Of a stretch of DNA of 64,000 nucleotides, positions 15,189 to 33,252 are shown in pieces. The first letter of the stretch is position 1. The number at the start of each line of letters is the position of its first letter. The stretch comes from an uncultured Desulfosarcina sp. (GTDB lineage Bacteria; Desulfobacterota; Desulfobacteria; Desulfobacterales; Desulfosarcinaceae). The translations under genes and the position numbers were made by a program. The notes under the pieces are model-generated. The model was not told the DNA's origin. It made no database searches and worked only from the letters and a program-made list of their open reading frames with translations. Where the stretch lies: positions 1,312,001 through 1,376,000 of the forward strand of contig CAXXWQ010000003.1 of the NCBI GenBank assembly GCA_963674945.2, written 5' to 3'.

Positions 15189-15189
15189 A

Positions 15190-15783
15190 ATGGGTGAAAT
15201 GATCAAAATGGTCCTCGTTCTGACCGTCCTGAGCGTTGTATCGGGCGGCAGTCTCTCCTGGTTGAAAGACTTTACTGAACCCAAAATCGAAAATCAGGTA
15301 ATGAATCTGGTCAAAGGACCCGCGATCCGAAACATGCTCTCAGAAGCGGATAACGATCCAGTGGAAGACAGATTCAAGGTCACCGACGGTGACGTGGAGC
15401 GCAACGTCTTCGTGGGCGTGTTCGGTGGCAACGCCGACACGGTGGTGATGGAGTCAGAAGCCAATGGATTTGCCGACAAGGTGGGGCTGGTTGTGGCCAT
15501 CAACACGTCCAATGACACCCTGCGCGGCGTCGCTGTGACGACGAGCAAGGAGACCCCCGGTCTTGGCGCCAGGGCCAAGGACGACCCAAGCTTCGCCGCC
15601 CAGTTTGCGGGGAAAGAGATCGCCACCCCCTTCGGCGTCACCAAGGACGGCGGCCAGATCAGTGCCTTGAGCGGCGCCACGATCACCTCTCGGGCCGTCT
15701 GCACCGGAGTCAACGCGGCCATCAAGTCGTACAATCGGTTAAAACCGCAACTGGAAGAACAAATCAAAGGCATGGGCAAATAG
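15190..15783 (+). CDS. rnfG: RnfG FMN-binding subunit
   Basis: N-terminal TM helix, ETPGLG, ISALSGATITS flavinylation motif. Confidence 0.93.
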   Translation: MGEMIKMVLVLTVLSVVSGGSLSWLKDFTEPKIENQVMNLVKGPAIRNMLSEADNDPVEDRFKVTDGDVERNVFVGVFGGNADTVVMESEANGFADKVGLVVAINTSNDTLRGVAVTTSKETPGLGARAKDDPSFAAQFAGKEIATPFGVTKDGGQISALSGATITSRAVCTGVNAAIKSYNRLKPQLEEQIKGMGK

Positions 15784-15796
15784 AGGAGTTACCGCA

Positions 15797-16420
15797 ATGG
15801 CAAAATCGTTCGTTCAGGAATTTACCAAGGGACTCTGGAAAGAGGTACCGCCGTTTCGGCTGGTCCTCGGTCTCTGTCCGACACTGGGTGTGACAACATC
15901 ACTAAAAAATGGCATCGGCATGGGCCTGGCCACGACTTTCGTCTTGCTCTGTTCTAACATTCTGGTCAGCCTTTTGCGGAAGGTGATTCCCGCCAAGGTA
16001 CGCATCGCCTGCTACATCATTATCATCGCCACCTTCGTCATCGTGGTCGAACAGGTGATGGCGGCCTTCGCCTATACCCTCTTTTTGGATTTGGGCGTGT
16101 TCATCCCGCTGATCGTGGTCAACTGTATCGTTTTGGGTCGCGCCGAGGCATTTGCCTCCAAAAACGGTATTTTCAAGTCTACCGCCGATGGTCTGGGCAT
16201 CGGACTTGGATTCACCTGGGCCCTGGGGCTGCTGGGCGCCGTACGTGAACTCATCGGCACCGGTTCCCTCAAGGGCGACGTCTTCGGTCTGATCCACTGG
16301 AATATTCAGGACATCTTCGGCGCCGGATTCGAGCCTTTTGCATTTGCCGTGCAGGCGCCGGGTGCCTTCGTTCTTCTTGGATTGCTGCTTTGTGCCATGA
16401 ACATGATCCCCAGTAAATAG
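15797..16420 (+). CDS. rnfE: RnfE membrane subunit
   Basis: LGLCPTL, IPLIVVNCIVLGRAEAFA, APGAF. Confidence 0.95.
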   Translation: MAKSFVQEFTKGLWKEVPPFRLVLGLCPTLGVTTSLKNGIGMGLATTFVLLCSNILVSLLRKVIPAKVRIACYIIIIATFVIVVEQVMAAFAYTLFLDLGVFIPLIVVNCIVLGRAEAFASKNGIFKSTADGLGIGLGFTWALGLLGAVRELIGTGSLKGDVFGLIHWNIQDIFGAGFEPFAFAVQAPGAFVLLGLLLCAMNMIPSK

Positions 16421-16439
16421 CGGAAGGGAAGCAATACAC

Positions 16440-17012
16440 ATGGAATATATCGAAATCATCATCGCTACCATTTTCGTTAATAACATACTGCTGGCACAGT
16501 TTCTGGGGAACTGCCCTTTTCTGGGAACTTCCAAAAAGATGGAAACTGCGGTGGGCATGGCCATGGCCGTCATCTTCGTTCTGGTCATGGCCGGCGCGAT
16601 CACCTGGCTCATCTACGCCTATCTGCTGGTACCGTTTAAACTTGTCTACCTGCGCACCATTGCCTTCATCCTGGTCATCGCAGCCCTGGTACAGTTCGTG
16701 GAGATGTTCCTGAAAAAAAGCATACCGGCCCTCTATGCCGGCCTTGGCATCTTCCTCCCCTTGATCACCACCAACTGTGCGGTCTTTGGCGTGTGTGTGC
16801 TTAACATCGACAAGGAACTCGATTTCATGCCGGCCCTGGTGACTTCCTTCGGATATGCCGCCGGTTTCGGTCTCGCCCTGATTTTCTTCGCCGGACTGCG
16901 GGAACGAATCCTCTTGGCACGGGTTCCCAAGCCGCTGCAGGACACTTCCATCGCCCTGATCACAGCCGGTATGGTGTCACTGAGTTTCTATGCCTTCCGG
17001 GGAATGGTATAA
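16440..17012 (+). CDS. rnfA: RnfA membrane subunit
   Basis: NNILLAQFLGNCPFLG, LVQFVE, LPLITTNCAV, GLRER. Confidence 0.95.
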   Translation: MEYIEIIIATIFVNNILLAQFLGNCPFLGTSKKMETAVGMAMAVIFVLVMAGAITWLIYAYLLVPFKLVYLRTIAFILVIAALVQFVEMFLKKSIPALYAGLGIFLPLITTNCAVFGVCVLNIDKELDFMPALVTSFGYAAGFGLALIFFAGLRERILLARVPKPLQDTSIALITAGMVSLSFYAFRGMV

Positions 17013-17051
17013 ACGGGTGTCCTGGCGCCTATCGGGAGAGACGATAAACAC

Positions 17052-17097
17052 CGAAAAAAACCGTTTGGAGCGCTTGGGTTCCAAGCGGTTTTTTTCG
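17052..17097 (+). terminator. Intrinsic terminator-like hairpin between rnfA and rnfB
   Basis: CGAAAAAAACCGTTTGGAGC-loop-GTTCCAAGCGGTTTTTTTCG; stem with G-U pairs followed by a T7 tract. Confidence 0.7.
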
Positions 17098-17125
17098 TTT
17101 TGATTTTGATTCAAGGAGGTTTTCC

Positions 17126-19201
17126 GTGACCATCGCGATTCTTGTCATGCTAGGCATCGGCGCAACCTGCGGCATCATCCTCAGCGTTGCCTCCAAGATC
17201 TTTTATGTCTATGAAGACCCGCGTATTGCCGAGGTGGAGTACTTTCTGGCCGGCGCCAATTGCGGAGGCTGCGGCTTCGCCGGATGCAGTGCAGCCGCCG
17301 TGGCCATCGTCGAGGGCAAGGCGGCCCCAAACATCTGCGTGGCCGCCGATTCCGATGCGGCCATCAACATCGCCGGCGTTATGGGTGTGGACCCGGGAAC
17401 GGCCGAACCCAATAAATCCCTTAACTCCTGCTCCGGCGGCGACCGCGCCGAAGACAAATTCATCTACAACGGCGCCATGACTTGCGCCGCCATGGCCACC
17501 TTGTACGGTGGCAAGCGGGTCTGTTCCATCGGCTGCATGGGTATGGGAGATTGCATCGCGTCTTGTCAATTCGACGCCATTCACATGGGACCCCACGGAT
17601 TTCCCGTGGTGGACGAGTTCAAATGCGTGGGCTGCGGTGCCTGTGAAGCGGCTTGCCCCAAGGGACTCATCTCCGTCAAAACCATGAGCCAACGGCTTCT
17701 GGTCTTCAACGAGGAAGACCAGGCCCTGGCCCCCTGCCAGCAGACATGTCCTGCGGAAATCGACATTCCCAAGTATATCCGTCTGATTAAAGAAGGCGAC
17801 TATGAAGGAGCCGTGAATACGATCCGTGAACGCAATCCGCTCCTGCTCAGTTGTGGCCGGGTCTGCCCCCACCCCTGCGAGGACTACTGCCGGCGTGGAA
17901 TCGAAGACGAACCGGTCTCCATCAACCAGTTAAAACGGTTCGTCGCCGACTATGAAATGAACAGCGGAAGGCGGTTTCCCATCGCCTGCGCACCGGACAC
18001 GGGCAAACGGGTGGCCGTTATCGGCGGTGGTCCTGCCGGTGTGAGCTGCGCCTACTTTTTGCGCCGTCTGGGACACCATCCCACCATCTACGAAAATATG
18101 TCCAAACTCGGTGGCATCACCCGCTACGGTATCCCCGAGTATCGCCTGCCGGACAAAGTGCTGGACTGGGAAATCGAGGGTATCTTGAACCTGGGCATCG
18201 ACGTTCACTACAACACCCAACTGGGAAGGGATTTTACCATTCAATCCCTCCGCGACGAGGGGTATGAGGCCATCTTCATGGGAATAGGTGCATGGAAAGA
18301 CTATACCCTGGGCATCGAAGGCGAGGAACTGGACGGGGTCACACAGGGGATCAAGTTTCTCTCTTCCGTCGCCGACTCTCCCGACAAAAGGGTCCCCATC
18401 GGAAAAAGGGCGGCGGTTGTCGGCGGTGGAAACTCGGCCATCGACTGCGTTCGCACCCTCTTGCGCCTCGGCTGTGAAGAGGTCTGGATCGTCTATCGAC
18501 GGACCCGTAAGGAGATGCCTGCCAACGAAGTGGAAATCGTCGCCGCCGAGCACGAAGGCATCAAGTTTCAGTTCCTGGCCGCCCCCACAAAGGTTATCGG
18601 AGACGAGAACGGAAAGGTCATCGGACTGGAATACCTGCAGATGGAGCTGGGTGAACCCGATGCCAGCGGCAGGCGCCGGCCGGTTCCCATCGAAGGCTCG
18701 GAGACGGTCCTTGACGTGGACATGGTGATCTCGGCCATCAGCCAGCAAGCAAATCTATCCTTCATGGAAAAGGAGCCGGAAAAAGAGAATATCGCCATCA
18801 CCCGCTGGAACACCTTCGACAACGACCCCGAGGTTCTCCAATGCAGTGTCCCCTACCTGTTCACCGGCGGTGACGTGGCAACCGGTCCTTCCCTGGTGGT
18901 GTCAGCCATCGGCGCAGGGCGTCGGGCGGCCCGCAGCATTCACCAGTATATCGCCGGCGAGGAGGTCAAGGGTTCTCCCAAATCGCTTCACAAGCGACAC
19001 ATTTTCGAGTCCTTGTTCGATTCCGTCCCCGGTGTGGTCAAATCCAAGCGGACGCCCATGCCCGAACTTCCCGTAAAGGATCGCATCCACAGCATGGTCG
19101 AGGTGGACCAGGTGATCAGCGAATCCGACGCCAAACACGAGTCCGGTCGTTGTCTCAACTGCTGCCGGGTCTGTTATAACCCCGATCAAAAGGTCGCGTA
19201 A
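17126..19201 (+). CDS. rnfB: RnfB fused to a GltD/NfnB-like FAD/NAD(P)H oxidoreductase
   Basis: N-terminal RnfB (TM helix, GANCGGCGFAGC, CSIGCMGMGDC, CVGCGACEAACP), then APCQQTCP, CGRVCPHPCE, IGGGPAG, YGIPEYRL, GGGNSAID..YRR, GGD. GTG start behind AAGGAGG. Confidence 0.9.
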   Translation: MTIAILVMLGIGATCGIILSVASKIFYVYEDPRIAEVEYFLAGANCGGCGFAGCSAAAVAIVEGKAAPNICVAADSDAAINIAGVMGVDPGTAEPNKSLNSCSGGDRAEDKFIYNGAMTCAAMATLYGGKRVCSIGCMGMGDCIASCQFDAIHMGPHGFPVVDEFKCVGCGACEAACPKGLISVKTMSQRLLVFNEEDQALAPCQQTCPAEIDIPKYIRLIKEGDYEGAVNTIRERNPLLLSCGRVCPHPCEDYCRRGIEDEPVSINQLKRFVADYEMNSGRRFPIACAPDTGKRVAVIGGGPAGVSCAYFLRRLGHHPTIYENMSKLGGITRYGIPEYRLPDKVLDWEIEGILNLGIDVHYNTQLGRDFTIQSLRDEGYEAIFMGIGAWKDYTLGIEGEELDGVTQGIKFLSSVADSPDKRVPIGKRAAVVGGGNSAIDCVRTLLRLGCEEVWIVYRRTRKEMPANEVEIVAAEHEGIKFQFLAAPTKVIGDENGKVIGLEYLQMELGEPDASGRRRPVPIEGSETVLDVDMVISAISQQANLSFMEKEPEKENIAITRWNTFDNDPEVLQCSVPYLFTGGDVATGPSLVVSAIGAGRRAARSIHQYIAGEEVKGSPKSLHKRHIFESLFDSVPGVVKSKRTPMPELPVKDRIHSMVEVDQVISESDAKHESGRCLNCCRVCYNPDQKVA

Positions 19202-19243
19202 AAATCACCGGCCACACGCTCTGCGTGTGGCCGGTGATTTTTA
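19199..19243. terminator. Bidirectional terminator between convergent rnfB and the helicase gene
   Basis: Perfect inverted repeat TAAAAATCACCGGCCACACGC-tct-GCGTGTGGCCGGTGATTTTTA that includes both stop codons. Confidence 0.9.
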
Positions 19244-20959
19244 AAAAAGAGACATCTGCCCCTTTACATCCAGCGCCATACCAAACTCGTCCTCGAAATC
19301 GTCCTGCAACTCCTGGATCTCACCGGGTGTGAGGCCGGCGATGTTGGCGGTAATCATATTGTCTTTTCCATCGGCTTCCAGGTTGTGGATACGACAGCCA
19401 TCGGGCAACATGGAGCGCAGCAGCGTTCGTGGTCCGGAGGGACGCCCCCTCTTTTTTGGCGCTTCGTATATCACCGTCCGGCAGGAGACCCGCTGGATGT
19501 GCCACTTCAGATAGGCGAAGCGTTCGTTCTCCGTCTCGGGGGATCGAAAGGTGACCCTGAGCGTCGTATCATCCAAATGCAACCGGGAACCCGCCACACC
19601 CGCCTGCTTGAGGATTTTCCGAGTCTCGTCTCGGGCCTCCTTGACGCTGCATTCTCCCTCCCGCGCCTCGTAATGGAGCACCGGTTCGCCGTCCAGCCCG
19701 GCGGTCACGACCTCCGGCGGCAGGCTCATCAGAATGGATTGTACCTCTTCCAGGCAAACGGCGTCACGAATGCGCAAGAACGCATCGGGACAGGTCACCT
19801 TGATTCCGGAGAGAGACTGGGCCTGACGGAAGGGATCCGAACCACGACTCCTCCACTGTTTGGAAAGTCCTGCCATCTGGGCCGCCCCGTATTGCAGTGG
19901 ATGGACGCTTCTGTCGACGATGTCGATGACGGTGCAGGCATTCTTTCCAGGGGCCGTTCGCAGCCCCCGTCCGATACACTGGGTGTAAACCAGGGGCGAA
20001 GTAGTGGGCCTTGCCATGAGGATGCACGCAACGGTGGGGTCGTCGAATCCCTCGGTGAGCACCCCGTAGTTGGTCAACACCTGGATCTCACCCTTTGTAA
20101 AACGCTTCAGGATCTCTTCCCGATTCTTGCTCTTGCCGTCGATCTTCTCGGCCCGCACCCCCAAGGTGCAGAAGTCGGCGGCAAGATCCTGGGCGTGGTC
20201 GATACCGGCACAAAAGGCGATGGTCTTCCCTCCTTCACCCCGTTCCATCCACGCCTGTAAGGTCAACGCCCGGGTCTTAGGGGTGTTCATCACCCGTGAG
20301 AGGGCGCCCACCTGGAAATCGCCGGCCGACATCTTGACCCTATCCAGCTTGAGGTTCCCACGAATTGTGAAATACCGCATGGGCACCAGATAACCGAGAT
20401 CCTCCAGGTCCGGGCGGGAGATTTCGAATGCCGTTCGACCGAAGACGTCCAGGGCGGACTTGCCGTCCGTCCGCTGGGGGGTGGCCGTCATTCCGAGCAG
20501 TAACGTATCTCGATCTGCCTGGGTGTGAAAGTAGTCGATCACCTCCCCCCAACTCGGCGCCAGTGCCCGGTGGCATTCATCGCAGATGATCAAGGCGTAG
20601 GCTTTGGGATCGTAATTCTCTTTCCTGCGCACCAGAGATTGGACCGATGCCAGGACAATGGCGCCGTTGCCATGGGCCGTCCTCGTACCCTGCTCGATCT
20701 GCACCTTGATTCCCGGCAGATGCCGCCGGATGGTACGGGCGGTCTGGTCGATGATCTCCTTTCGATGGGCCACGAAGAGAACCTTGCCGAACCCTTTCGT
20801 GGTTCTAAGGGCCTTGATGATGTGGGTGGCGATCACGGTTTTCCCGGCACCGGTGGGAAGATAGAGAAGCATGCGCCGCTGGTTCTTTTCCTGGTACCGT
20901 GAAACGACGGCGGCAACTGCCTTTTTCTGATAGGGTCGAAGCCGAAATGGTTTGGTCAT
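19241..20959 (-). CDS. SF2 DExH helicase (ResIII/RadD/Irc3-like) with an uncharacterised C-terminal region; last gene of the Wadjet-like operon
   Basis: LRPYQ, LPTGAGKT, VAHRKEI, DECH, MTATP, VLTEGFD, QCIGRGLR. Starts 10 nt after the jetD-like stop. Confidence 0.92.
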   Translation of the reverse strand: MTKPFRLRPYQKKAVAAVVSRYQEKNQRRMLLYLPTGAGKTVIATHIIKALRTTKGFGKVLFVAHRKEIIDQTARTIRRHLPGIKVQIEQGTRTAHGNGAIVLASVQSLVRRKENYDPKAYALIICDECHRALAPSWGEVIDYFHTQADRDTLLLGMTATPQRTDGKSALDVFGRTAFEISRPDLEDLGYLVPMRYFTIRGNLKLDRVKMSAGDFQVGALSRVMNTPKTRALTLQAWMERGEGGKTIAFCAGIDHAQDLAADFCTLGVRAEKIDGKSKNREEILKRFTKGEIQVLTNYGVLTEGFDDPTVACILMARPTTSPLVYTQCIGRGLRTAPGKNACTVIDIVDRSVHPLQYGAAQMAGLSKQWRSRGSDPFRQAQSLSGIKVTCPDAFLRIRDAVCLEEVQSILMSLPPEVVTAGLDGEPVLHYEAREGECSVKEARDETRKILKQAGVAGSRLHLDDTTLRVTFRSPETENERFAYLKWHIQRVSCRTVIYEAPKKRGRPSGPRTLLRSMLPDGCRIHNLEADGKDNMITANIAGLTPGEIQELQDDFEDEFGMALDVKGQMSLF

Positions 20960-20969
20960 GGCTGTTCAA

Positions 20970-22040
20970 TTATCGCAATGCGGCCAGTATGTCCGCGGTG
21001 GTCAGCCCCTCCTGGGGCCATCGCTCATCGTCGGCTTTTTCCAGGTACCTCTCTGCCAGTTCGTCGCCGAGCCAATGCTTTGCCAGGATCGGGTCGCGGT
21101 CTCTTTCCTGGGATCGGGCGTAGGAAACCGATAAATCCTTTTCCAAAAGCGCCCGGTAAAGGCCCTTTTCCGCTTCCATGGGCTGCATCTTTCTCTCCTC
21201 CCGGTATCCGTTGATGCGGCACGGGATGGCGATACCGGCAGGATCCAAGTCCCCGAAGTAACGGATGCCGTCTGCGGCCACCTGGAGTCGGATCTCCTCC
21301 AGGCCGTCGCTGGCGCGTTCGGCGGCACATGCCGTAAAGCCCTGACCGTAGACGACGGCGGCGTACCGATGAAGGTCATCGTTGGCCCGGAAGCAGCTCC
21401 AGTAGGTATTGGCGTTTTCCACCACCAGCAATGGTTTGCCTTGGGTCTGCCGTACATCCAGGGAGAAGGATCGAAAGGGAAGCGGTTCGGGACAATAGAA
21501 ACAGTCCAGGTCTTCCAGGGTGATGCGGCCGCCGAACATGCCGGTGCGCACGTATCGATCCAGGGCCTTTTCGTCGCCGAATATCTCCAGGGCGCGTTCC
21601 CGATGGGGCACACGTATCTGCCGCTGCGGACGGTGGAGAAGGTACCGGTTTATCCGTCTGGCACGTTTCAGTTCCCGCCTGGTGCGCAGGCTATGGGCAA
21701 AGGCCACCATTCGCGTGGGTTCCCATGCCGTTTCGTTGCGAAGGTCGGCCAGTGTCTTCTGTCTTGCCTGCTGAGTTTGATCCTCGGCGGTTCTTACGGC
21801 TGTGACGTACCCGGGCAGGCCGGTCCGTCGATCCCAGATATGCCTCGCCTTGGGAAGACGAAGACGGCCCTCTTTTGCCAACGCCGTAAGGGTCTCTTTG
21901 AGCCTGTCCTGGATTTCGAAATCGGTTCGAGGGCCGACGATGAGGCGACGAACGGCGGCTTCGATCTCGCCGATGGCCACCTGTTTTTTGCGGCTGGCAC
22001 CAAGCACCTGTAACACGGCATCACGCCATAACCGTTCCAT
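20970..22040 (-). CDS. jetD: Wadjet JetD-like TOPRIM nuclease (DUF2220/DUF2399-like)
   Basis: RERALEIFGDEKAL, LVVENANTY, VVYGQG, YFGDLDPAGIAI, WPQE; overlaps the end of the SMC-like gene. Confidence 0.85.
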   Translation of the reverse strand: MERLWRDAVLQVLGASRKKQVAIGEIEAAVRRLIVGPRTDFEIQDRLKETLTALAKEGRLRLPKARHIWDRRTGLPGYVTAVRTAEDQTQQARQKTLADLRNETAWEPTRMVAFAHSLRTRRELKRARRINRYLLHRPQRQIRVPHRERALEIFGDEKALDRYVRTGMFGGRITLEDLDCFYCPEPLPFRSFSLDVRQTQGKPLLVVENANTYWSCFRANDDLHRYAAVVYGQGFTACAAERASDGLEEIRLQVAADGIRYFGDLDPAGIAIPCRINGYREERKMQPMEAEKGLYRALLEKDLSVSYARSQERDRDPILAKHWLGDELAERYLEKADDERWPQEGLTTADILAALR

Positions 22041-25000
22041 CGCGCTTCTCCACGTTCAGCTCGGTAATCTCCAGCAGGTCATAGGCGACGCCGTCGATCT
22101 TTATTTTCCTCTCCCCTTTTCGGATGGCAACGCGAAGTTCGAACAGGTCCAGGGATTCGCGGTCATTGATGCCGGTAAGATAGACACACTGGATGCCCAT
22201 GGCCCTGGCCACTTTCAACTGCGCATCGAGAAAGTCCGATCGATTGCAGACCCCTAATGGGTTGTCCAGCACGAGGAAGGCGGGAATTCGCCCATCGGGC
22301 TGACTGTGTCGCCTTTTTCTCATGGAAATCAGCAGCGTATAGAGCAGTACCGCCGTTGTCAAGGCTTCCCCACCCGATCCCAGATCCTTTCCCACCGGCT
22401 CGTAGTTACGACCGGTATCGTCACATTTGATCAGCCGGATACCGAAAGTTTTCTTGCCGGTGGAAGCCCCCAGCAGCTGGTAGAGCAACTCCGATCCCAG
22501 GCAGTTTCCCGCCCTGGGATTCACCTCGGGCAGGCGGTCCTGCTGGATGAGTTCGTGAAGCCAATTCTCAACCGATCTCTTGAAATCCTCTTTGTACCGG
22601 ACAAAATCCAGCCTGGTTCCGGCGCGGAGGATGCTTCGGCCACCGTAGATGAACACGTCTTCGGGGATGGTGTGCTGGGCCGCCCCATGCAGCTTCTGAT
22701 GATACTCCTTGGCACGGGAAAGAAGCATATCCACGAGATTGTCGACGATCTGTTGAGAAATGGCAAGATCGCTCTCGATGTTTTGGGCGATGTCCTCGCA
22801 TCGCCGGATCAGTTCTTCCGCCTGGGCCCCGAGGGATTCGGGATCATGGCGCCGCAATTCATCGGTCACCGCAGGCAGGTGGCTTCGGAAGTGGTCCCCC
22901 TGAAGATCGGCCTGAAGGCGTTCGAAACCACCACCCAACCGCCGGCGGGCTGCATCCACGGCCTTTTTCTCCTCCTCCTGGGTCGTTTTCCGAAGGCGTA
23001 CCTGCTCCCGCAGGGCTCTTACCGCAGCCACCGTCTCCTCCGTGTCGGATGGCGCCAACGGATCCGTCCACGGGAATCTGGGGGAGTCGCCGTCCCAGAC
23101 GGGTGCAAAGGTCTCCGTCTGGACCAGACCGAGTTGCGTCTCCCGCTGCCACTTCTCGTGGACGGTGATCTGGTCCGATAGTTCCCTGCACCGCTTTGCC
23201 AGTCGCGCGCAGTTCTGTTCGTGGCGCAACGATTCACGCTGGAGGCGATGGATCATGGCGCTCGCATCCTGGCCGGCAAGTGTCTTCTCCACGATATCCG
23301 GCTGGATGCCTTTCTTTGCCAGTTCAAAAACCTGTTCTCTCAGCTTCTGGCTGTCCCGCCCTAGGTATTCGATCTCAGACTGCAGGCTGCCGGTTGCCCT
23401 CGTGCGTTTCTCAATTTCGCCGGCCAGCCACTGGCTTCGCACCTCCCGGTCGGCAGAACTCCGGGACGCCCAGCTGTCGGCCTGCTTCTCGTCGTACGCC
23501 CGTTCCCGGCGCAACGTCTCGAGCCGGGCCTCCCGTTCTGCGAGGACGATCTGCAGCTCGTCCAGCTCCTTTTGCAAAACGTCCTTTCCCAACTCGTCCG
23601 CCTTATGGCGCTGGCGCCGTAAGGCGTCCTCGAAGAGTCCCTTCAGGGTCGGAAGGTCCATGGCCATTGCCTCTTCGGCTTCCTCTTGGGAAAGTGCGGC
23701 TACTTCCGGCTTTACAACGTCGCCGGCCCGTTCATCCAGCCCTTTGAGCAGGATGGACCGCTCGCGGATGTCCCCATGAAGATCGGCAATCTCTCCTTGG
23801 ATTCGTTGGCGTGTATCGCTTTCGGCGTCAATGCCATCCGCCAGCGTTTTTCTGTCGCCGATCATCTTTTCCGCTTCCTGCTGCCAGGTGGTAAGCCGGC
23901 CGTATTGTCGGAGCCAGGATTCGATCTGTTTCAACCGCTCCTCCAGGCGGGCCTCATCGGCAGTCATGGATTGGATGGCGTGATCCTGATCGGCTTTTCG
24001 CTGTCGAAAGTCTGAAAAATGCGCCTCCGTATCGGCGATTTCCGATGCCAGTTCGGTAAGAGTCCGTTCCAACTCCCTGACACGGTCGGAAAGGCCATCC
24101 ACCGCGGATCTATCCGGGAACGTCTCCCGGTACACGTGAAGATCCCGGCTGTCCGCCTCCATCTCCCGCAAAGAAGCGGTTTCCTCGCCGATCTTTTGGA
24201 AAAGGGCTTTCGTCTTCTCTCGCATTCGGCCCAGCGTCTCCTCCAAATGGCGTTTGGCGTACACATCCGGATCGGCAGGATGGATCACCACCTGCTTGAT
24301 GTCGGTCAACGAATCAGGCGTACACGGAGTGGAGAGAACGACGGGCCGGTGGAGCCATCGGGGTACGGGCAGTTCCATAACGGCCTCGATCACCTTTTCG
24401 GTGGCGGCCATGATTCCGGTGAACCGGCCGGGATCACTTTCCAGGAAACGGGCGATCTCCTCGGGCGCTTCATACAGCCCGGCCAGGTACTCGGGAAAGG
24501 ATTTCAACTCCCCGGGAGATATTCCGCTCTCATGGTAATGGGTGATGAGTTTTCTCGTCTGGGCATCGCCGGTCAACGATTTGGCATCGGTCAATTGTTT
24601 CAGTTCCATCGAAAGGTCGGCATGCCGCTTTTCCATTTTTGCCAGGCGGTCCCGCCCGCGAACGATGGTGTCGTCCAGCTTGGATACCAGCTCCGCGGCC
24701 GTGGGTTCGAGTACCGGATTGCCGGCCACCCGCTGGAGGTGGGGGGATGCCAGAAGCCGGTTTCGCTGCCGGGCCTCGGCATTCACGCGCTCTGTTGCCC
24801 GATCCTGTTGTGCCTGAACCTCCAGCCGCTTCTTATGAAGCATTCGCCACCGCTCCTCGCCGATCTTGATCTTCTCGTCCAGGTCGACCAACCGGCCTCT
24901 CGCGATGGTGATTCGCTCCTCCACGGAACGAATCTCTTCTTTCAGGCGATTTCTAGCGTCTTCCACAGATTCGCCCGACTGCATGCAAAGGGCCGAGCGG

Positions 25001-26424
25001 CTCTCTTCGGCCGCACGGATGCGGGCCAGGGTTTCGGAGATCTTCTCTTCGAGCGCCTCTTTTTGTGATTCGCGTTCGATCAGACATTTTGTTGACGATG
25101 CCAGGGAGGCATCGAGGTCCGATATCCGCTTTTTTCGTTCATCGATCTCGCGTATCACACGCCGTCGTTCCCCATCGAGGCGTGCATGATATTGAAGGGC
25201 AAGCCCATCCACCCGTCGAAACATGGGTTCAAGTTCTTCGTTGGCCTGGGACAGGGCCTCCCGCTTCGTCTTCGCCTCGGCACGGCGGCGCAGGACTTGG
25301 GAAAGGACATCTGCGGCTTTCAGGGCATTTTCCTCTCTCCTGAATCCCTGGATCTCCTCTCTTGCCCGGGCGATCTCTTGTTCGGCCCGTGCAATCTGAT
25401 CTTTGAGCTGAAAACCTTTCACCACCGACAAGTTGGCCTGGACGACTTCTCGCTGTGAGGATGCATCGTGGCGTTGACGCTCCGCCTCTTTCAAGCCCGG
25501 GTTGAGGATGTTCAGTTTCCTTGCCACCGTCTGATCCGCATTTTTCATCAAATGGGTCGCCTCCCCCAGGGTAACCTGGGAGGATTCCACCGCATCCTGC
25601 GCTTGTCGCCACTCCTTGGCCAGGGTCTCGAAGTCGACGATTCGCTCCTTCAGTTCTCGAATTGTGTTCAGCTGTGCGATTTTCCTGGGACGGTCCTCCA
25701 TCTTTCGCAGGGACTTGCCGATGGTGTCGCGCAGGGTGACGGCCGCATCCATGTCGGCCACGCACCCGAGAAAAAAATCTAAGAAATCGTCCTCGGACCG
25801 AAATTTGAATGCATCCTTGATCCCCCCTTCGCTACGGGCGAAATCGATCTGTCGCTCCATGAGCCAGGGGTCCAGACCCAACCGCTGCAAGGTATCGGTC
25901 CACTCCTTCTGGCTGGTGGTCTGTTGAACATGGGTCCCGATGAAGTCCCGCACGGTCCGCCAGGGTTGCTCCTCGTCGAGAAGTTGTTCCCACCTGTCGC
26001 GAAACAGGTCGAAAAGGTCAAGGGCATGAGCAATGAAAAAGATGCGCTCCACCTTGTCCGCCGCGCTACGGTGACGATAGAGAAGCTGGCCGAGGACAAG
26101 GTGTTCCTCGGGCTGTGTCTCGAACAAAGTGGGCTGGCCCAAATTGGCCATGTCCAGCATCACCACGGCGGGTCGACCCGGAATCAGATATTGGTCCAGG
26201 GTTTTGTCCCCGCTGGACTGAAGGTGCTGAACAAAGCGTCGCTGGTCCGGACAAAAAACGTTGAGAAGAAAAGAGAGGACGGTGGTTTTGCAGGTACCGT
26301 TGGCGGCGAACAATACGCCGTGGTCGGCATGGCCGCTCTCTCGAACGACGGGCACGAAGGCGTTTTGCAAAAGGTTCTCCCCGGCCGTAACGTCGCTGAT
26401 GAAAAATCTACAGAGTCGATACAT
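22021..26424 (-). CDS. jetC: Wadjet JetC-like SMC/MukB-family ATPase (1467 aa)
   Basis: N-terminal P-loop-like ANGTCKTT, Q-loop-like SEGG, long coiled coils around a central hinge, C-terminal signature GSGGE and Walker B-like LVLDNPLG. Confidence 0.85.
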   Translation of the reverse strand: MYRLCRFFISDVTAGENLLQNAFVPVVRESGHADHGVLFAANGTCKTTVLSFLLNVFCPDQRRFVQHLQSSGDKTLDQYLIPGRPAVVMLDMANLGQPTLFETQPEEHLVLGQLLYRHRSAADKVERIFFIAHALDLFDLFRDRWEQLLDEEQPWRTVRDFIGTHVQQTTSQKEWTDTLQRLGLDPWLMERQIDFARSEGGIKDAFKFRSEDDFLDFFLGCVADMDAAVTLRDTIGKSLRKMEDRPRKIAQLNTIRELKERIVDFETLAKEWRQAQDAVESSQVTLGEATHLMKNADQTVARKLNILNPGLKEAERQRHDASSQREVVQANLSVVKGFQLKDQIARAEQEIARAREEIQGFRREENALKAADVLSQVLRRRAEAKTKREALSQANEELEPMFRRVDGLALQYHARLDGERRRVIREIDERKKRISDLDASLASSTKCLIERESQKEALEEKISETLARIRAAEESRSALCMQSGESVEDARNRLKEEIRSVEERITIARGRLVDLDEKIKIGEERWRMLHKKRLEVQAQQDRATERVNAEARQRNRLLASPHLQRVAGNPVLEPTAAELVSKLDDTIVRGRDRLAKMEKRHADLSMELKQLTDAKSLTGDAQTRKLITHYHESGISPGELKSFPEYLAGLYEAPEEIARFLESDPGRFTGIMAATEKVIEAVMELPVPRWLHRPVVLSTPCTPDSLTDIKQVVIHPADPDVYAKRHLEETLGRMREKTKALFQKIGEETASLREMEADSRDLHVYRETFPDRSAVDGLSDRVRELERTLTELASEIADTEAHFSDFRQRKADQDHAIQSMTADEARLEERLKQIESWLRQYGRLTTWQQEAEKMIGDRKTLADGIDAESDTRQRIQGEIADLHGDIRERSILLKGLDERAGDVVKPEVAALSQEEAEEAMAMDLPTLKGLFEDALRRQRHKADELGKDVLQKELDELQIVLAEREARLETLRRERAYDEKQADSWASRSSADREVRSQWLAGEIEKRTRATGSLQSEIEYLGRDSQKLREQVFELAKKGIQPDIVEKTLAGQDASAMIHRLQRESLRHEQNCARLAKRCRELSDQITVHEKWQRETQLGLVQTETFAPVWDGDSPRFPWTDPLAPSDTEETVAAVRALREQVRLRKTTQEEEKKAVDAARRRLGGGFERLQADLQGDHFRSHLPAVTDELRRHDPESLGAQAEELIRRCEDIAQNIESDLAISQQIVDNLVDMLLSRAKEYHQKLHGAAQHTIPEDVFIYGGRSILRAGTRLDFVRYKEDFKRSVENWLHELIQQDRLPEVNPRAGNCLGSELLYQLLGASTGKKTFGIRLIKCDDTGRNYEPVGKDLGSGGEALTTAVLLYTLLISMRKRRHSQPDGRIPAFLVLDNPLGVCNRSDFLDAQLKVARAMGIQCVYLTGINDRESLDLFELRVAIRKGERKIKIDGVAYDLLEITELNVEKRDGTVMA

Positions 26425-27196
26425 CTTCTTCTCCCGATTCCACTACCGGTTCTTTCTCTTCCTCTTCATATTCCACCAGAATGTCCCGAAAGGCGTGAAA
26501 GGAATAAACGATCCCCTCCCGCATGGCGGTCTGATAAGCCGGTGTGGGGCGGTACTCCATGTCGCCGGGAGTCTCTTCGAAAAGGAGAAGGTAGCCAGTT
26601 TCCACCAAATGCTCCAGTACCTGACGCACCAGGTCTACCCAACTATTGCCGGCGCCGGCACGCAGACGGTCGGGGTTGTCCTCGGGCAGCTCCCGCAGGC
26701 GCCGGGCCACGGTACGAACCTGGGGATGCAGCCGATCCTCCTCTTCGGAAAGGGCGGCCTCGGCGTGTGCAAAACGGCGTAGAATATCGATCACATCCCT
26801 CAAGACGATGGCGCCCAGGTCTTCCACGGGCATGTCCAGGTCCGCCTCGGTGGGAAAAAGCGCGGTGGCGATGGCGCAGTGAACCGGAAGGACATCCGCG
26901 GCCCTCAGGTCGCTTCGGGCCAGCAGGCGGCCATAGTCGGTAAGGGTTGTGGCAAAAAATCCGTCTGCGTTTCGGGCCGACAGGCGCAGGCCGCCCTCTT
27001 CCAGGGCAAGCAGCCGAAGTTCCATGGCCCGCAGGGCCGCAATCACGGCCTGGCGAAAGGCCTCTTCCGCCTGAAACCGCTGCACCAGCTCGGTCATCTC
27101 CGTGCTGTTCTGGGTCACGATGCGCTTTCTTCCACTGCTGTAGGCCAGGCTCAAGTAGACGAGTCGACCGGCATCGTATATCGTCTCCGCGTTCAT
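26408..27196 (-). CDS. jetB: Wadjet JetB-like (MukE/KITE-like) subunit
   Basis: Size (262 aa) and position between jetA- and jetC-like genes; winged-helix-like C-terminus (LEHLVETGYLL...YRPTPAY); abutting/overlapping ends. Confidence 0.7.
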   Translation of the reverse strand: MNAETIYDAGRLVYLSLAYSSGRKRIVTQNSTEMTELVQRFQAEEAFRQAVIAALRAMELRLLALEEGGLRLSARNADGFFATTLTDYGRLLARSDLRAADVLPVHCAIATALFPTEADLDMPVEDLGAIVLRDVIDILRRFAHAEAALSEEEDRLHPQVRTVARRLRELPEDNPDRLRAGAGNSWVDLVRQVLEHLVETGYLLLFEETPGDMEYRPTPAYQTAMREGIVYSFHAFRDILVEYEEEEKEPVVESGEEDVSTL

Positions 27197-28807
27197 TTAG
27201 CGCTCCTGTTGGGGTCGGGATGGGACCTTACGAATCAATCGGAGTTCATGCCCCCGATACCGCCGGCCTTTGCAAAGGTCCACGGCAATCCGAGTTCCGG
27301 GGTCGGGCAATTCCACCCGAATTCGGTTCCGGACGGCCAGGCGTCGCTCCACGGTGCACTGGAACACGGCCATGGCAACGGCCACGGGAAGGAGGTCGTC
27401 GTCATCCGAGCCGGCGGATTTGCGTGACGACGCCGCCAGCAACCGGCTGAGCAGAATTTCGCCATCTTTTTGCACCGTATCGTGAAGGAGTTCGAAAGCC
27501 GTGTGCATGAGCGATTCCGTGAGATCCGACGCGAAGTGCTGGACCGGAATCGTGTCGATCTCGTGAATGGTCTGTTTTCGGTCGCCGGGAACGTTTTTGC
27601 GTTCCAGTGCCCGGTCGCATGCCTCGATCACCGAGGCCGGATCGAACAAGGTTCGCTGGGCCGGCGGGTCGATGCGGGCAATGAACTGGGTCCCCACATC
27701 CGCCGCCTCGTCCTCGCCCAGTCGGCACAAACGGCGCATCACCTCTTCCATGGGGGGAAACACGCCGAGACTTCGCCTGCGAAAAAGTTTGAAGCTGTGG
27801 TAATGGTAGTCGTCCGGAAGCTGCTGAAGCTCGCCGGAGAGCTTCAGCAATTGGTCGTTGAGTCGTTCGAGCGTCTCGGCCAGCCGGTGAAGTTTGGCAT
27901 TGCGTTGCCCTTTGCCGGAGGCCATCAGGTTCTCGATGACCATATTATGCAGCCGCCGTCCCTCTTTCTGAATGGCCGTTGCCTGATGGACGCCCTCTTG
28001 TGCCAGCGCGCGCACATGTTCGAAGGCCACGGCGTGGATGTTTCGCCGGATCTGGCGGCGGGTGTTGTGAACTTCCAACGCTTTTCGGGAACACTGCTTT
28101 CGGTTCCCATCGGCAACGGAAAGGGCGTCATCCACATTTCCCCGCTCGATGAGCAGTTTGATCCGAAGATTGCCGATGGCCGCCGCGTCCAGTGCGCTGG
28201 TCTCGTGGAGCCCGAAATAGGCGGCGTATCCTTCGTCGGTTAGGGTGAAGAGGGCTTCGCGGCCTTCGCCGGTGTAAACCGTCTTGATCAGCCAGAACCG
28301 GCGAGTTTGGAAGCGGCCGATGGAACCGTCGAACCATGAGTATTGAAAGGGTAGATAGCGGTTGTTGCGGTTGACCAGATGATCGAACACCTTGTTGAGT
28401 ATGTCTGTCAACCCCTCAGTGGTTGCTTCGACACCGCAGGCGGAGACTTGCGCCCGGGCCAGAGGCAGGATTTTTTCCAGAACCTCGCCGCGGGTGGCAC
28501 CGGACTGATACTCGGTAAGCTCCGAAATGACATCTAAAATAGCAAAAGCGATCCACAAGGCATCCACCCCATCCCAGATGGCACCGGTGTCGTCCGGTTC
28601 GCTCTGTCCAAACCGGCGGGCCTCCAGTTCGAAGATGGGCCGCATAATGGAGGCGGAGTAAACCGCCCGGCTCACATCGGTCGTAAAACCCGGATCCGAA
28701 ACGCCTCCCGGATGGATGGAACGTGTCGACGCCTGGTTGTCTTCGTCGGGTGGCGTTGGTTTTTTCAGTTTCCTGGCAAAATCGATGAGGTCGAGTTGAA
28801 TGGGCAT
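27197..28807 (-). CDS. jetA: Wadjet JetA-like (kleisin/MukF-like) subunit
   Basis: FTLTDEGY...KLLIERGNVDDA pattern recalled from type III JetA; helical middle region; stop abuts the jetB-like start. Start uncertain (ATG 28807 chosen; ORF open to 28867). Confidence 0.7.
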   Translation of the reverse strand: MPIQLDLIDFARKLKKPTPPDEDNQASTRSIHPGGVSDPGFTTDVSRAVYSASIMRPIFELEARRFGQSEPDDTGAIWDGVDALWIAFAILDVISELTEYQSGATRGEVLEKILPLARAQVSACGVEATTEGLTDILNKVFDHLVNRNNRYLPFQYSWFDGSIGRFQTRRFWLIKTVYTGEGREALFTLTDEGYAAYFGLHETSALDAAAIGNLRIKLLIERGNVDDALSVADGNRKQCSRKALEVHNTRRQIRRNIHAVAFEHVRALAQEGVHQATAIQKEGRRLHNMVIENLMASGKGQRNAKLHRLAETLERLNDQLLKLSGELQQLPDDYHYHSFKLFRRRSLGVFPPMEEVMRRLCRLGEDEAADVGTQFIARIDPPAQRTLFDPASVIEACDRALERKNVPGDRKQTIHEIDTIPVQHFASDLTESLMHTAFELLHDTVQKDGEILLSRLLAASSRKSAGSDDDDLLPVAVAMAVFQCTVERRLAVRNRIRVELPDPGTRIAVDLCKGRRYRGHELRLIRKVPSRPQQER

Positions 28808-29644
28808 TTGTTTTTCGTCGTCTGTGCGTCGTGGCGATTTCAATGGTATGACAATGATATAGCCCAATGCCTGTTGGTTTTCAATACGAACCGCGACGGA
28901 ATCGATGGTTGTGAAAATCCCGTCCAGAAAGCAGGATACGATTATCCTTGACTTTGATTGTGGCTATATTACATTGAAACAAGATTAAGATAAACGATGA
29001 AGCTTTATTCCTGCCGCGCATTTCACCTGTAACCACCGCCAACTGCAATGTGATACTGGTCCGCGTCCCGAACGAATCTGCTGTTGATGGGTGGCACATT
29101 GAAGTTTTCCGGCCTTCGGTCTTTCTGTCCGTATGCTCTCTTTCTGAATGACCGTCGCGTGTCGGACCAATACAAATTATCTTATCCCAAGCCGGCATCC
29201 TGGCCCCGGTTTGTCTTATCGAACATCGAAGTCGACGCGTCAGGTTGATCCCCGTATGTCGAGCCCGGTTGTTTCGTCAAAACTGCCATGTCAGGATACC
29301 GGCGGGATATTCCAATAGGAGCATGAACGGCGATCCAACAGTCAGTGAGGCAGCAAGACATTGGGGCTGGCCCTGTGGCGACCGGCCCGACCATAACCGG
29401 AAACGGAAACGATCCCACCTGCGATTTCCTCCCCGCGATTCAACATCAATACGAACACCACCGCACCTTTCCCTATAAGAGATGACATCTTTAATGGTGT
29501 TGTCAGTACCAAGACGTATATGGTAATCGTCTTAAAAGGTTTCTCATATTCCTGTTGGCCGATGCCGTCGGTGATGGCGTAACTTGTTGGCCGCCTCGCC
29601 CAAACGGGAATGGTTAAAAAAATCTGAAAGAAGGAGAGTATTCC

Positions 29645-30241
29645 ATGGTCAGCAACTGGAAACGGGTGCGTTTGATGATATTGTTTGTCCTCCTGGTGGG
29701 ATGTGCAACCGGGATGAAGACCGAAAGGGTCCGCCCCGATTATGAGGATAAGGTATACACAACCTTCAGCGCAACGGATTTGATCATCATCGCCCAAGAG
29801 ATGACCCAATCTTTGGTGGATCATTTCAAATTTGGCGAGGAAAAACCATTGGTGCGAGTGGATGTGGTAAAAAACAAAACCGATGAGCATATCGATACAA
29901 AATCCATCACCGATTCCATCGTGACCAAACTGGTAAACAGCGGAAAAATAAGATTTTCCGTCGATTATGCGGAACGGGAAGAGTACGAGAAAAGGGCCGC
30001 AGAAGAGGCATTCGAAACCAGGATCAGTGAAGAGGACAGGCAAATGTTTCTTTCCGATCAGCAAGCACCCAAGTATCGAATATATGGTGAGTTGACAAAT
30101 ATGAAAACCATCACCGAAGACACCAAGGACGTCTTTTTCAAATTCACATTGAAAATGGTGGATTTCAGGACGGGTGCCCTGGAGTGGGCGGATGAAACCC
30201 AATTACGAAAGGTGGGGAAAAAAAGGATGTTTGGCTGGTAA
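29645..30241 (+). CDS. lpoB: LpoB-like (CsgG/LpoB fold) lipoprotein
   Basis: Lipobox LLVGC; VKNKTDEHIDTKSITDSI, FTLKMVDFRTGALEWAD; AAGGAG RBS. Confidence 0.8.
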   Translation: MVSNWKRVRLMILFVLLVGCATGMKTERVRPDYEDKVYTTFSATDLIIIAQEMTQSLVDHFKFGEEKPLVRVDVVKNKTDEHIDTKSITDSIVTKLVNSGKIRFSVDYAEREEYEKRAAEEAFETRISEEDRQMFLSDQQAPKYRIYGELTNMKTITEDTKDVFFKFTLKMVDFRTGALEWADETQLRKVGKKRMFGW

Positions 30242-30267
30242 ACGACAATATTTATGGAGGCACGAGA

Positions 30268-31453
30268 ATGTCCCGTAATATAGGAAACATACCTTTCCTG
30301 ATCTTTATTTCTCTTCTTTCGGGATTCCTGTTGTTCCCCCCCCCATGTTCAATCCAACCAGAAATTCATTCACGCGTGCGGCATGGCTCCGGTGATCGAC
30401 AAAAATGTTGGCAGAGCAAGGACGCAGGCCCTTTCGGAGGCCAAAAGAAATGCCGTGGAGATCGGCATCGGCACCCTCGTCAGTTCACAGACACTGGTAA
30501 ACAACGCCGTTCTGGTCAGTGACCGCATCTACTCCCAGGCAGCCGGATATGTGACCGACTACAAAATCGTATCGGAGGGTGTCACGCCCAACGGCAGCAC
30601 GTTTGAGCTGTGCATGAATACAACAGTTGATATCGGGAATATCGAAGATGATCTCAGGGCCATCGGGATACTCAAACGGCAAGTGGGCAATCCCAGGTTT
30701 ATGACCTTGTACATTCCGGAAATCGAGGGGGGATCCGGAAATGTTGCACCTGTCGTTCAATCGATACGACGCGTCATCGATGATCTATTTATTGATAAAG
30801 GATTTATCGTTCTCGACAAGATGTTCGTCCGTGATTTTGTCAATAAGGTAAATCAAAAGAGTGCCGGTGACTTGAAAAATGTGTCCTCGATGGCGTTGAA
30901 GTATCAGGCAGACCTGATTCTGCTCTTCGATATCGACGCTACCGAACGGACCGATATTTCAAACAAGTATTTCAAGGAGGTCCATCTCGCCGTGGATATC
31001 CGTTCCGTTTCCCCTTCCACTTCCGATATCATCGCTGCCGGAGGGGAGTCAAAAACGGTGAGAACGTCAAGGAAAATGGACGGCGACTACCTCGAGAGTT
31101 CGGCGATCACGAGCGCCGCGACGAATCTTGCCGAACAGGTCGCCGAAAGCTTGTTGGGAGAAGTACTGGCCTACTTTGAAAGGCAAAGTCATGAAGGTAC
31201 CCGCTACAAGTGCCGTTTCTCAGGATTCACACAGATGGAACGGTTTGCCATCGTCGAAGTCATCGAAAACATGAATGGCGTCATGGATAAAAACATGAGG
31301 CGCCAGTCCACAGATTCCATTGAACTGGACATCGACTATTTCGGAAAGCGTTTCGATTTCCAGCGGGAACTGATATCAGGTCTTACCAAAAAGGGAATTG
31401 ACGTCGAAATAAAAGAATCGGAAGGCAATTCGTTTGTATTTACCAAACCATGA
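30268..31453 (+). pseudogene. FlgT-N/LPP20-like secreted protein, split by a +1 frameshift in a C9 tract (30336-30344)
   Basis: The signal-peptide ORF at 30268 (GGAGG RBS) and the mature-domain ORF 30383..31453 (ARTQALSEAKRNAVE) join if one C is removed. Confidence 0.65.
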
Positions 31454-31518
31454 CGGTTAACGGCTGAAATCGTCGTGGAGCACCTTCGTCGTCGAAACCG
31501 GATTGAATAAAACAATAT

Positions 31519-33108
31519 ATGTTATTTTTTCAATATTTTAGGATAGAAGCGCCCTCAAAGATAGCATTCCGGCCAGAGATCAAGGCGGAGCCACGTTTCA
31601 AGCCGCAAGCATATATTGAATATGTTGAGGATTTGAAATGTGGCCCAACAAAGATATTGGGTTGGAAGAAATTTTGGAGATCACTTCTAATTATTATACT
31701 CTTTTGGGTCATTAGTTGCGCAGCCCAGATGCATACCGAACAAATGGCCGATATCAGGGGATCTCTTGCCGAAGGGCATAACCGATTGGACTTGCTTGAA
31801 GAAAGGGTTTGCACCAATAAGGGAGAATTTCGAAGCAACGCGGATCTTATCAATCTCCTGGAATTGGGTGCCCTTTACGCAATTGTCTCCGAATTTGTGA
31901 AAAGTAATGAAGTGCTCGAAATTGCCTACCGGAAATACACGAACCGGGAGGAACGAGCAAGGATCAGCGCGCGGGATACGACGAAAAATGCCCTGGATGT
32001 CCTTTTCGGTGAAGGGTCAGGTGAATATCACATGGCCCAGTTCGAAAAAGTCTACCTCCATAATATCAAAGCCATGAATTTTCTGATGGAGGGAAGTCCG
32101 GAAGCTGCGCGAGTGGAAGCCCAGAGGGCAATCAATCGTCACCAAATGATCAGAGAATATGCGCAATTTCAAGCGGCCCAGGTCGAAAAAGGAAAGGCGG
32201 AGGTGAAACGGGAGGTGAGGAATCTATCCTCCCATTCGTCCAATGGCAAGGGCAAACATGATCGACTCGATCTCGATTCAAAAATCCGGGAACTCACGAA
32301 AAGAGCAGCATTGTCGTCGAGTCAAAAACGAGCAATTCAAAATGTAAGAAATGCATATGAAAACTGTTACACCTATCTTCTATCAGCCCTGACGTTTGAT
32401 TTGAACAAAGAATTTGAAAATATCCGCCCCCAGCTAAAAAATGCATCGAAATTAACAAAAAACCGGTATGTGCGAAAGTTATATTCCGAATACCAAAACG
32501 ATTCTAATGCCATGAGCACCGAGGTGAACCTCTACGTTTTTTCAGAGGAGGACTTTGCACCGACCAAAAAGAACCTGACCATCTCCTTTGTCAATCCCAT
32601 TACGGAGACATTGAACCAATTCTCATTGGCACAGATCGATCCGTCGCCGCAGACGATCTCGGCCATCGAACTAATGGATTCGAAATCGAAGCAAATAGGA
32701 GAACTGGAACCATTGGCGGACCTGGACCTTTTATCCCTGAAACAATACGAGTTGGACCTTCCTGGCAATATCACGAGGGCGGCACTACGATTGGTGTCCC
32801 AAGCTCTCAGGGACAAGGCCGCCCTCGATGAAGCCCAAAATACGAATGTCTCATTTTTATATAAAATCGGACTTTCCGTATTGACGATGACCACAGCACT
32901 GGCGGATACAAGGGCGTGGACATTGGCGCCGAAAAAGATCTCCTTTTACTGCGGAGCCGTTCATGATGCCCGCATTCAATTACAAGTCAGGGGGGCTTCC
33001 GGAACGGTCATAAATCAAAAAGAGATTGAAATCGTGCCGGAAATGCTCAATATAATCTCTGTCAGATGCTGCAATAACAATACGTTCATCCGAAGTCAGC
33101 GCTTCTGA
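31519..33108 (+). CDS. COG3014-like TPR lipoprotein
   Basis: Lipobox-like VISC; EYHMAQFEKVYLH, AARVEAQRA, ADTRAWTLAP. True start is probably later (TTG ~31657). Confidence 0.7.
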   Translation: MLFFQYFRIEAPSKIAFRPEIKAEPRFKPQAYIEYVEDLKCGPTKILGWKKFWRSLLIIILFWVISCAAQMHTEQMADIRGSLAEGHNRLDLLEERVCTNKGEFRSNADLINLLELGALYAIVSEFVKSNEVLEIAYRKYTNREERARISARDTTKNALDVLFGEGSGEYHMAQFEKVYLHNIKAMNFLMEGSPEAARVEAQRAINRHQMIREYAQFQAAQVEKGKAEVKREVRNLSSHSSNGKGKHDRLDLDSKIRELTKRAALSSSQKRAIQNVRNAYENCYTYLLSALTFDLNKEFENIRPQLKNASKLTKNRYVRKLYSEYQNDSNAMSTEVNLYVFSEEDFAPTKKNLTISFVNPITETLNQFSLAQIDPSPQTISAIELMDSKSKQIGELEPLADLDLLSLKQYELDLPGNITRAALRLVSQALRDKAALDEAQNTNVSFLYKIGLSVLTMTTALADTRAWTLAPKKISFYCGAVHDARIQLQVRGASGTVINQKEIEIVPEMLNIISVRCCNNNTFIRSQRF

Positions 33109-33187
33109 GCATCGATTCTTTTTATAAAGATTCGGGTATCGTGCAAGATGTCAGCGTCGTGACAATCGGGGAGACCGACCAAATGGG

Positions 33188-33220: not shown

Positions 33221-33252
33221 CTTCATCTCATGTTCAAAATCACATAGAAGAC

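Follow-up and report, generated by a model that had tools for sequence, protein, structure and literature searches.

A RadD-like helicase gene behind jetD of a type III Wadjet operon: a probable co-expressed, dispensable accessory of one lineage

Does a helicase gene that directly follows the jetD gene of a Wadjet operon belong to the Wadjet system? The question is raised by a 64,000-nucleotide stretch of DNA from an uncultured Desulfosarcina sp. (contig CAXXWQ010000003.1, positions 1,312,001 to 1,376,000; the whole stretch is called the window), which carries a jetABCD operon with a gene for a superfamily 2 (SF2) helicase at its end. A sequence-only reading of the window had taken this helicase for a dedicated fifth component that makes the locus a variant system. 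The answer favoured here, with a probability of about 0.55, is an ordinary type III Wadjet together with a self-sufficient RadD-like helicase, a dispensable, lineage-restricted accessory whose gene is probably transcribed along with jetD and coupled to it in translation.

The window's list of open reading frames (ORFs) confirms five tightly spaced, co-directional ORFs on the minus strand. The five coupled genes and all of the junction distances given in the sequence-only reading are borne out by the ORF coordinates. The jetA stop abuts the jetB start, jetB and jetC overlap by 17 nucleotides, jetC and jetD overlap by 20 nucleotides, and a gap of 10 nucleotides separates jetD from the helicase gene. 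The features of the operon are as follows.

27197..28807, minus strand: jetA, type III kleisin-like subunit, 536 amino acids from the ATG at 28807; the ORF extends over 27197-28867
26408..27196, minus strand: jetB candidate in the KITE position, 262 amino acids
22021..26424, minus strand: jetC, ATPase of type III resembling structural maintenance of chromosomes (SMC) proteins, 1467 amino acids
20970..22040, minus strand: jetD, type III Toprim nuclease, 356 amino acids
20960..20969, minus strand: jetD-helicase spacer, 10 nucleotides, TTGAACAGCC on the coding strand, without a Shine-Dalgarno-like run
19241..20959, minus strand: SF2 helicase with a RadD-like motor (residues about 5-350) and a family-specific C-terminal domain (residues about 385-572), 572 amino acids
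19199..19243 (approximate), unstranded: 21-bp hairpin, likely a two-way terminator by folding energy and shuffles

The start codons chosen for the genes are backed by alignments of relatives that begin at residue 1. A simple consensus scan of the minus strand detected neither a terminator-like site between any two of the genes nor a promoter-like site in the 1.1 kb preceding the helicase start. The single terminator that had been placed at the end of the operon is the 21-bp hairpin directly 3' of the helicase stop, which folds at -37.6 kcal/mol (z = -10); 0 of 200 shuffles fold as well. The hairpin is common to the helicase gene and the convergent rnfB/gltD-like gene, whose end is at 19201, and is likely a terminator serving both. 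A simple terminator scan did not list it because its U-run lies partly inside the stem. The spacing of the genes makes it likely that the helicase gene is co-transcribed and coupled with jetD.

PADLOC models were used to type the Jet proteins. JetA matches JetA3 (PDLC00569) with an E value of 1.1e-29 over residues 44-460; no Pfam or NCBIfam family was matched, and its relatives, at 73-75% identity, align from residue 1. JetC matches JetC3 (PDLC00578) with an E value of 4.5e-63 over residues 40-1440 of 1467. Its Walker A motif is ANGTCKTT and its signature motif is LGSGGE. The Walker B motif reads LVLDNP, as the LDNP picked out by the sequence-only reading requires. An Asp-Asn Walker B (LVLDNP or LILDNP) instead of the usual Asp-Glu was present in all eight type III JetC proteins compared, namely those of the window, loci L003, L007, L009, L089-L091 and the Polaromonas locus L096. 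JetD matches JetD3 (PDLC00594) with an E value of 8.7e-63 over residues 11-348, Pfam JetD_C falls just under the cut-off at E 2.7e-4, and an alignment of 46 relatives shows no variation at the Toprim residues E208 and D264/D266 (GDLDP). The JetA3, JetC3 and JetD3 matches are near full-length and agree with the earlier typing as type III, and no domain of JetA, JetC or JetD is missing relative to the four-gene type III profiles.

The product of the second gene has no PADLOC match even at E 10 and no Pfam family above the cut-off. It is 26% identical over 231 amino acids (pairwise E 1e-9) to the product of the second gene in the type III operon of Polaromonas naphthalenivorans plasmid pPNAP03, which weakly matches DUF6063. 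The ESM Atlas clusters that are nearest to JetB by feature carry DUF6063 on 15-46% of their members with scores of 0.95-0.97, which is a lead only. The gene is accepted as a candidate jetB in the KITE position that appears too divergent for the PADLOC JetB models. Judged from sequence, genes one to four make up an ordinary type III Wadjet (JetABCD).

The window operon shares its A-B-C-D gene order with pPNAP03 and with the B. thuringiensis operon that is shown as a type III Wadjet representative in a figure of a preprint (bioRxiv 10.1101/2025.03.10.642339). The four proteins have 536/262/1467/356 amino acids in the window and 495/243/1441/333 in pPNAP03. The likeness to type III Wadjet lies in the full-length PADLOC matches, the Asp-Asn Walker B and the Toprim acidic residues, and the difference is the co-oriented fifth gene for a helicase 10 nucleotides past jetD. 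In pPNAP03 (L096) the operon consists of four genes, and jetD is not followed by a helicase gene. Positions 1-2394 of that locus hold a gene for the type I restriction protein HsdR, which has an SF2 motor; it ends 61 nucleotides ahead of jetA on the same strand.

The junction between jetD and the helicase gene recurs in relatives of the window. JetD3 is present in 6 of the 31 genomes of the window's genus, and the helicase gene adjoins it in the window's own genome (G000), G004, G008 and G018. Complete five-gene blocks were found in the window, in G004 (L091), G008 (L003) and G018 (L090), and in a Desulfatitalea metagenome-assembled genome (MAG; L007); the genome assemblies of G004 and G018 are complete. 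A genome from another GTDB family (G501, L009) has the block with full-length jetA-D and a helicase gene cut at about residue 238. The arrangement of jetD stop, 10 nucleotides and ATG, with no Shine-Dalgarno-like run, occurs at five loci (the window, L003, L009, L091 and L001), and the solo helicase copy at L004 has GGAG ahead of its start. In D. cetonica (G016, L001 1845-3055), an insert of 1144 nucleotides with GNAT and LysE genes lies between jetD and the helicase gene. The insert is flanked by direct repeats of 67 nucleotides (85% identical) of the jetD 3' end, and the D. cetonica locus therefore derives from the tight form. A frame break near residue 108 was also seen in the jetD gene of this locus.

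Pairwise identities sort the loci into the same groups whether jet genes or helicases are compared, L003, L009 and L090 being closest, and no fewer than four unrelated flanking contexts surround the five-gene block. JetD of the block in the second GTDB family is as close (71% identity) as the same-genus copies, which suggests transfer as a unit. The conserved junction without a Shine-Dalgarno-like run, the co-inheritance and the second-family block indicate that helicase and jetD are probably co-expressed and that the block of five genes moves as one. The helicase-jetD link that had been proposed thus stands as a recurrent, operon-like junction, and the dedicated fifth component of a variant system is unsupported as stated.

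Each partner also persists alone. The helicase tree places all jet-linked copies in a single 15-row clade with support of 100/99, from which the five-gene Desulfatitalea copy is the first to branch off, with moderate support (88/85) at the next node; solo L004 is sister to five-gene L091 (98/89), and the remnant-bearing copies are placed next to five-gene L003. An intact helicase gene stands beside deleted jet genes at L002 (which equals L011), L010 and L013, and the remnant loci retain JetA residues 1-88, the JetC tail and pieces of JetD ahead of it. Both flanks of L002 are shared with L003, and the jetA-side flank is also common to five-gene L090. No jetD remnant was found upstream of the helicase gene at solo loci L004, L005 and L006. 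Among the nine same-genus helicase genes (G000 included), four adjoin jetD, one is separated from it by the insert, one is beside remnants and three are elsewhere. G009 (L089) has a four-gene jetABCD operon with ydjM- and lexA-like genes next to it, and its helicase orthologue lies 3.1 Mb away. The genes just past jetD in G009 are a full lexA and a ydjM-like gene (L089 7787-8932), and a LexA-like N-terminal fragment, read by eye, lies just upstream of the solo helicase gene at L004 (about 9800-9990). These lexA neighbours hint at an SOS link.

The helicase belongs to a family that is otherwise solo. The family is large and strongly conserved: of 8000 candidates scored, 1677 came within the threshold of E 0.001, and the top 120 have at least 60% identity and are mostly about 571 amino acids long; their named sources are Desulfobacterota, Myxococcota and Proteobacteria MAGs. 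Orthologues are patchy, being present in 8 of 30 same-genus genomes versus 0 of 400 others in the phylum sample. The metagenome search gave 79 helicase loci, of which 64 were orthologue-level and 44 of these had at least 1 kb of upstream sequence. No intact jet gene was found by tblastn at any of these 44 loci, and jet remnants were found at 2; the same query caught JetD relatives down to 33-35% identity elsewhere and is thus of adequate sensitivity. The stand-alone orthologues have 49-70% identity. The plasmid collection held no full-length orthologue, the best match covering 75% of the query; all 33 matches were below 60% identity, with 32-38% among the 30 matches listed. The persistence of each partner alone and a family that is otherwise solo argue that the helicase is self-sufficient and dispensable, and it appears to be a separate enzyme and not a Wadjet subunit.

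A second arrangement was seen among the solo copies. In a helicase subclade from marine and sediment metagenomes (L047-L063 and L081; about 52-54% identity to the window helicase), a gene for a TPR protein of about 650-750 amino acids lies directly upstream on the same strand at all five fully scanned loci (L050, L051, L052, L056 and L059). Shorter or cut TPR ORFs are upstream of the helicase gene at L048 and L060, and L061, L063 and L081 have same-strand ORFs of like size (697-705 amino acids) that are listed by size only. The TPR-helicase pair looks like a conserved two-gene arrangement in this subclade. On two peat or soil contigs, a TIR-TPR gene is directly upstream of the helicase gene on the same strand (L015 2173-3978 and L038 1796-3646).

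The jetD genes were surveyed in the same way. JetD relatives were present in 10 of 300 other genomes in the order sample, and a helicase gene followed jetD in one of these 10 (G501, a fragment). The helicase followed JetD3 in 0 of 3 genomes in the phylum sample. Outside the block lineage, 0 of 13 JetD3 loci in the genomes of relatives have the helicase after jetD, and pPNAP03 likewise has none. Orthologues of the helicase are thus rarely beside jet genes outside one small lineage, and the proposal of a dedicated helicase, which had staked itself on this point, is not supported in the form given. The surveys speak against a Wadjet subtype with a dedicated helicase subunit: the orthologues are mostly not beside jet genes (an intact jet gene at 0 of 44 metagenome loci), related jetD genes are not regularly followed by the helicase (1 of 10 in the order, 0 of 3 in the phylum), and each partner persists without the other (L002, L010, L011 and L013; G501). 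The survey also returned JetD3 relatives at 52-56% identity from three genomes of one genus in the same order (L106, L107 and L108 in G460, G574 and G530). No JetC similarity was found within 1.5 kb on either side of these genes, and their neighbours are Fic, AraC-type and metabolic genes; they may be orphan jetD genes.

The helicase protein has both RecA-like lobes, with Pfam matches to ResIII (3.6e-36) and Helicase_C (7e-15). The Walker A GAGKT, DE-H, TAT and Q..GRG.R motifs are invariant in 33 sequences; the Walker A lysine is K40. RadD is an SF2 DNA repair helicase with a role in recombinational repair, and E. coli RadD (YejH; PDB 6jde, 7r7j and 8h5y) is the nearest characterised relative by both sequence and fold. 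The SF2 motors are 26-28% identical over about 375 columns, the match to PDB 6jde has an E value of 8e-33 over residues 5-349, and Foldseek returned RadD at E 3e-23. The two proteins have similar lengths (572 and 586 amino acids), and the C-terminal 220 residues of the window helicase do not align to E. coli RadD. The candidate that it is RadD proper was rejected on the NCBIfam RadD equivalog (NF053632), which scores 155.5 bits versus a cut-off of 720 and matches the motor only, over residues 5-349.

The C-terminal domain is specific to the family. A search of 1.84 billion proteins with its profile recovered only 52 cluster representatives, most of which are pieces of this family. The model has two small alpha/beta modules that are weakly KH- or ferredoxin-like. 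Foldseek matched the tandem KH domains of aCPSF1/FttA and NusA at E 7e-5, but with template modelling (TM) scores of at most 0.32. The highest Z in a VIA wide structure search was 8.6, for 61 residues, a value that the tool counts among common arrangements, and the Atlas feature scores were at most 0.82. No function is read from this domain because the KH- and ferredoxin-like matches are too weak.

Relatives that join such a motor to a nuclease were also considered. The Pfam scan found no nuclease family and no effector domain in the helicase. A type I or type IV restriction helicase-nuclease (REase_I, mREase_IV) was rejected, the PADLOC matches being to the motor only (for example positions 221-569 of 945 in the mREase_IV profile). 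Archaeal XPB-Bax1 and type I restriction HsdR are among the fold matches of the helicase and belong to the same broad SF2 motor class. In both, the motor is paired or fused with a nuclease; the window helicase is without a nuclease domain, and the likeness is confined to the motor.

The Wadjet mechanism has been studied in type I systems, as outlined in a review (PMC10586767). By analogy with type I, DNA loaded with JetABC would be extruded into loops, and when it is small and circular the JetD Toprim nuclease would be triggered to cut it. The helicase would be made whenever JetD is made. Its RadD-like motor suggests that it may act on DNA after or beside the JetD cut, as a separate enzyme. 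One option is that it unwinds the ends of the linearised plasmid for degradation, and another is that it helps to repair or clear host DNA after a Wadjet misfire. There is a precedent for an SMC-type defence that uses a separate DNA helicase: Lamassu depends on the host helicase PriA, according to the same review (PMC10586767). The difference is that PriA is a housekeeping gene outside the defence operon, and both the helicase family and the SMC system are other ones.

Several points weigh against the reading of a dispensable, co-expressed accessory. Co-transcription and coupling are read from spacing alone, and a tight junction can persist by operon inertia. The five-gene lineage is shallow, and several loci have a common ancestry (L002, L003 and L090 have a flank in common), which leaves only a small number of independent events. 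Conservation is higher in the helicase than in JetC or JetD (77-95% inter-locus identity, versus 63-79% for JetC and 59-83% for JetD), which fits selection of its own as well as a partner gene. For a downstream role in end processing or repair, the pointer is the RadD-like motor; the C-terminal domain offers no functional hint.

The alternative that survives best is a neighbour with no functional tie: on one occasion a solo helicase gene would have landed downstream of jetD, shed the region upstream of it and since then been carried along in the operon, without affecting Wadjet. This is a possible but doubtful explanation. It would account for a family that is overwhelmingly solo, for the survival of each partner without the other and for the stronger constraint on the helicase than on the jet genes. 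It does not readily account for an exact stop-10 nucleotides-ATG spacing that was kept in five loci while JetC diverged to 63-79% identity, for a block that stays joined in at least four contexts, or for its presence in a second GTDB family with a JetD (71% identity) as close as the same-genus copies.

It is improbable that the helicase is a separate single-gene defence, or a helicase against mobile genetic elements, that is only co-located with Wadjet as defence genes often cluster. A patchy gene (8 of 30 in the genus, 0 of 400 in the phylum) that is nonetheless 60-70% identical in Myxococcota and Proteobacteria MAGs would fit this explanation. At least one PADLOC-matching neighbour was also found within 5 kb at 10 of 20 solo loci, for example AbiEi/Eii (L030 and L035) and PrimPol (L046). 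However, the other 10 loci have none, and many of the matches are generic domains (kinase, UvrD motor, RtcR). The neighbours of solo helicases are mixed and include TPR and TIR-TPR proteins, aspartate kinase, acetyl-CoA synthetase, RecC and glycosidases. The protein lacks a nuclease or effector domain, and no PADLOC system is defined by the helicase.

An obligate fifth subunit, needed for target recognition or cleavage in this Wadjet lineage, is very improbable despite the tight jetD coupling, the co-inheritance and the first branching of the five-gene Desulfatitalea copy (88/85, moderate, at the next node). In G501, full-length jetA-D stand beside a helicase that breaks off at about residue 238, and in D. 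cetonica two inserted genes part jetD from the helicase gene. G009 runs a four-gene version, helicases stay intact after jet-gene deletion, and JetA, JetC and JetD are without a missing domain.

With the helicase read as a dispensable, co-expressed accessory, the five-gene layout with a RadD-like helicase appears to be a new, narrow form of type III Wadjet. PADLOC v2 has no Wadjet helicase model and does not catalogue the layout. The literature searched contained no Wadjet-encoded helicase; the supplementary tables of Doron et al. 2018, outside that search, might list such neighbours. The expectation that the five-gene layout is not a catalogued subtype was correct within PADLOC v2 and this literature. 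A more far-reaching idea is that Wadjet has taken on the RadD-like helicase as a functional partner whose production keeps pace with that of JetD, giving a triad of SMC motor, nuclease and helicase in one sulfate-reducer lineage, in which the helicase finishes cut plasmids or shields the chromosome from Wadjet cuts. This idea is tentative. If true, Wadjet systems would gain their first described accessory factor in the recruited helicase. The disposal of cut DNA and the avoidance or repair of self-damage are open points in the Wadjet model, and a jetD-coupled helicase is a concrete candidate for them. Natural variants offer controls that already exist: helicase genes that have no jet genes beside them, jet genes next to a truncated helicase, and the separated pair of G009. 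If the helicase is irrelevant, the locus is one more type III Wadjet. It also shows that tight gene packing alone does not prove a neighbour's membership in a defence system.

The operon is flanked by an Rnf operon on one side and by lipoprotein- and porin-like genes on the other. The window genes at 28881-33996 encode LipL46-like and porin-like proteins and have no PADLOC match, and there is no evident defence island around the operon. Full-length matches to the rnfB/gltD-like protein, at 82-89% identity, occur in 28 of 30 same-genus genomes. In the search for an empty site, all eight rnfB/gltD-like loci compared were without any window gene beyond this one within 12-15 kb. The neighbourhood after rnfB therefore differs in 8 of 8 relatives, and no empty site with the same flanks and no block was available to set the block borders. 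Synteny in the window's genus is generally poor. The Rnf cluster itself lies at 12432-19201 of the window, with a multihaem cytochrome c3-like gene ahead of it. Its last gene encodes a protein of 691 amino acids in which RnfB-type Fe-S domains are joined to a GltD-like pyridine-nucleotide oxidoreductase.

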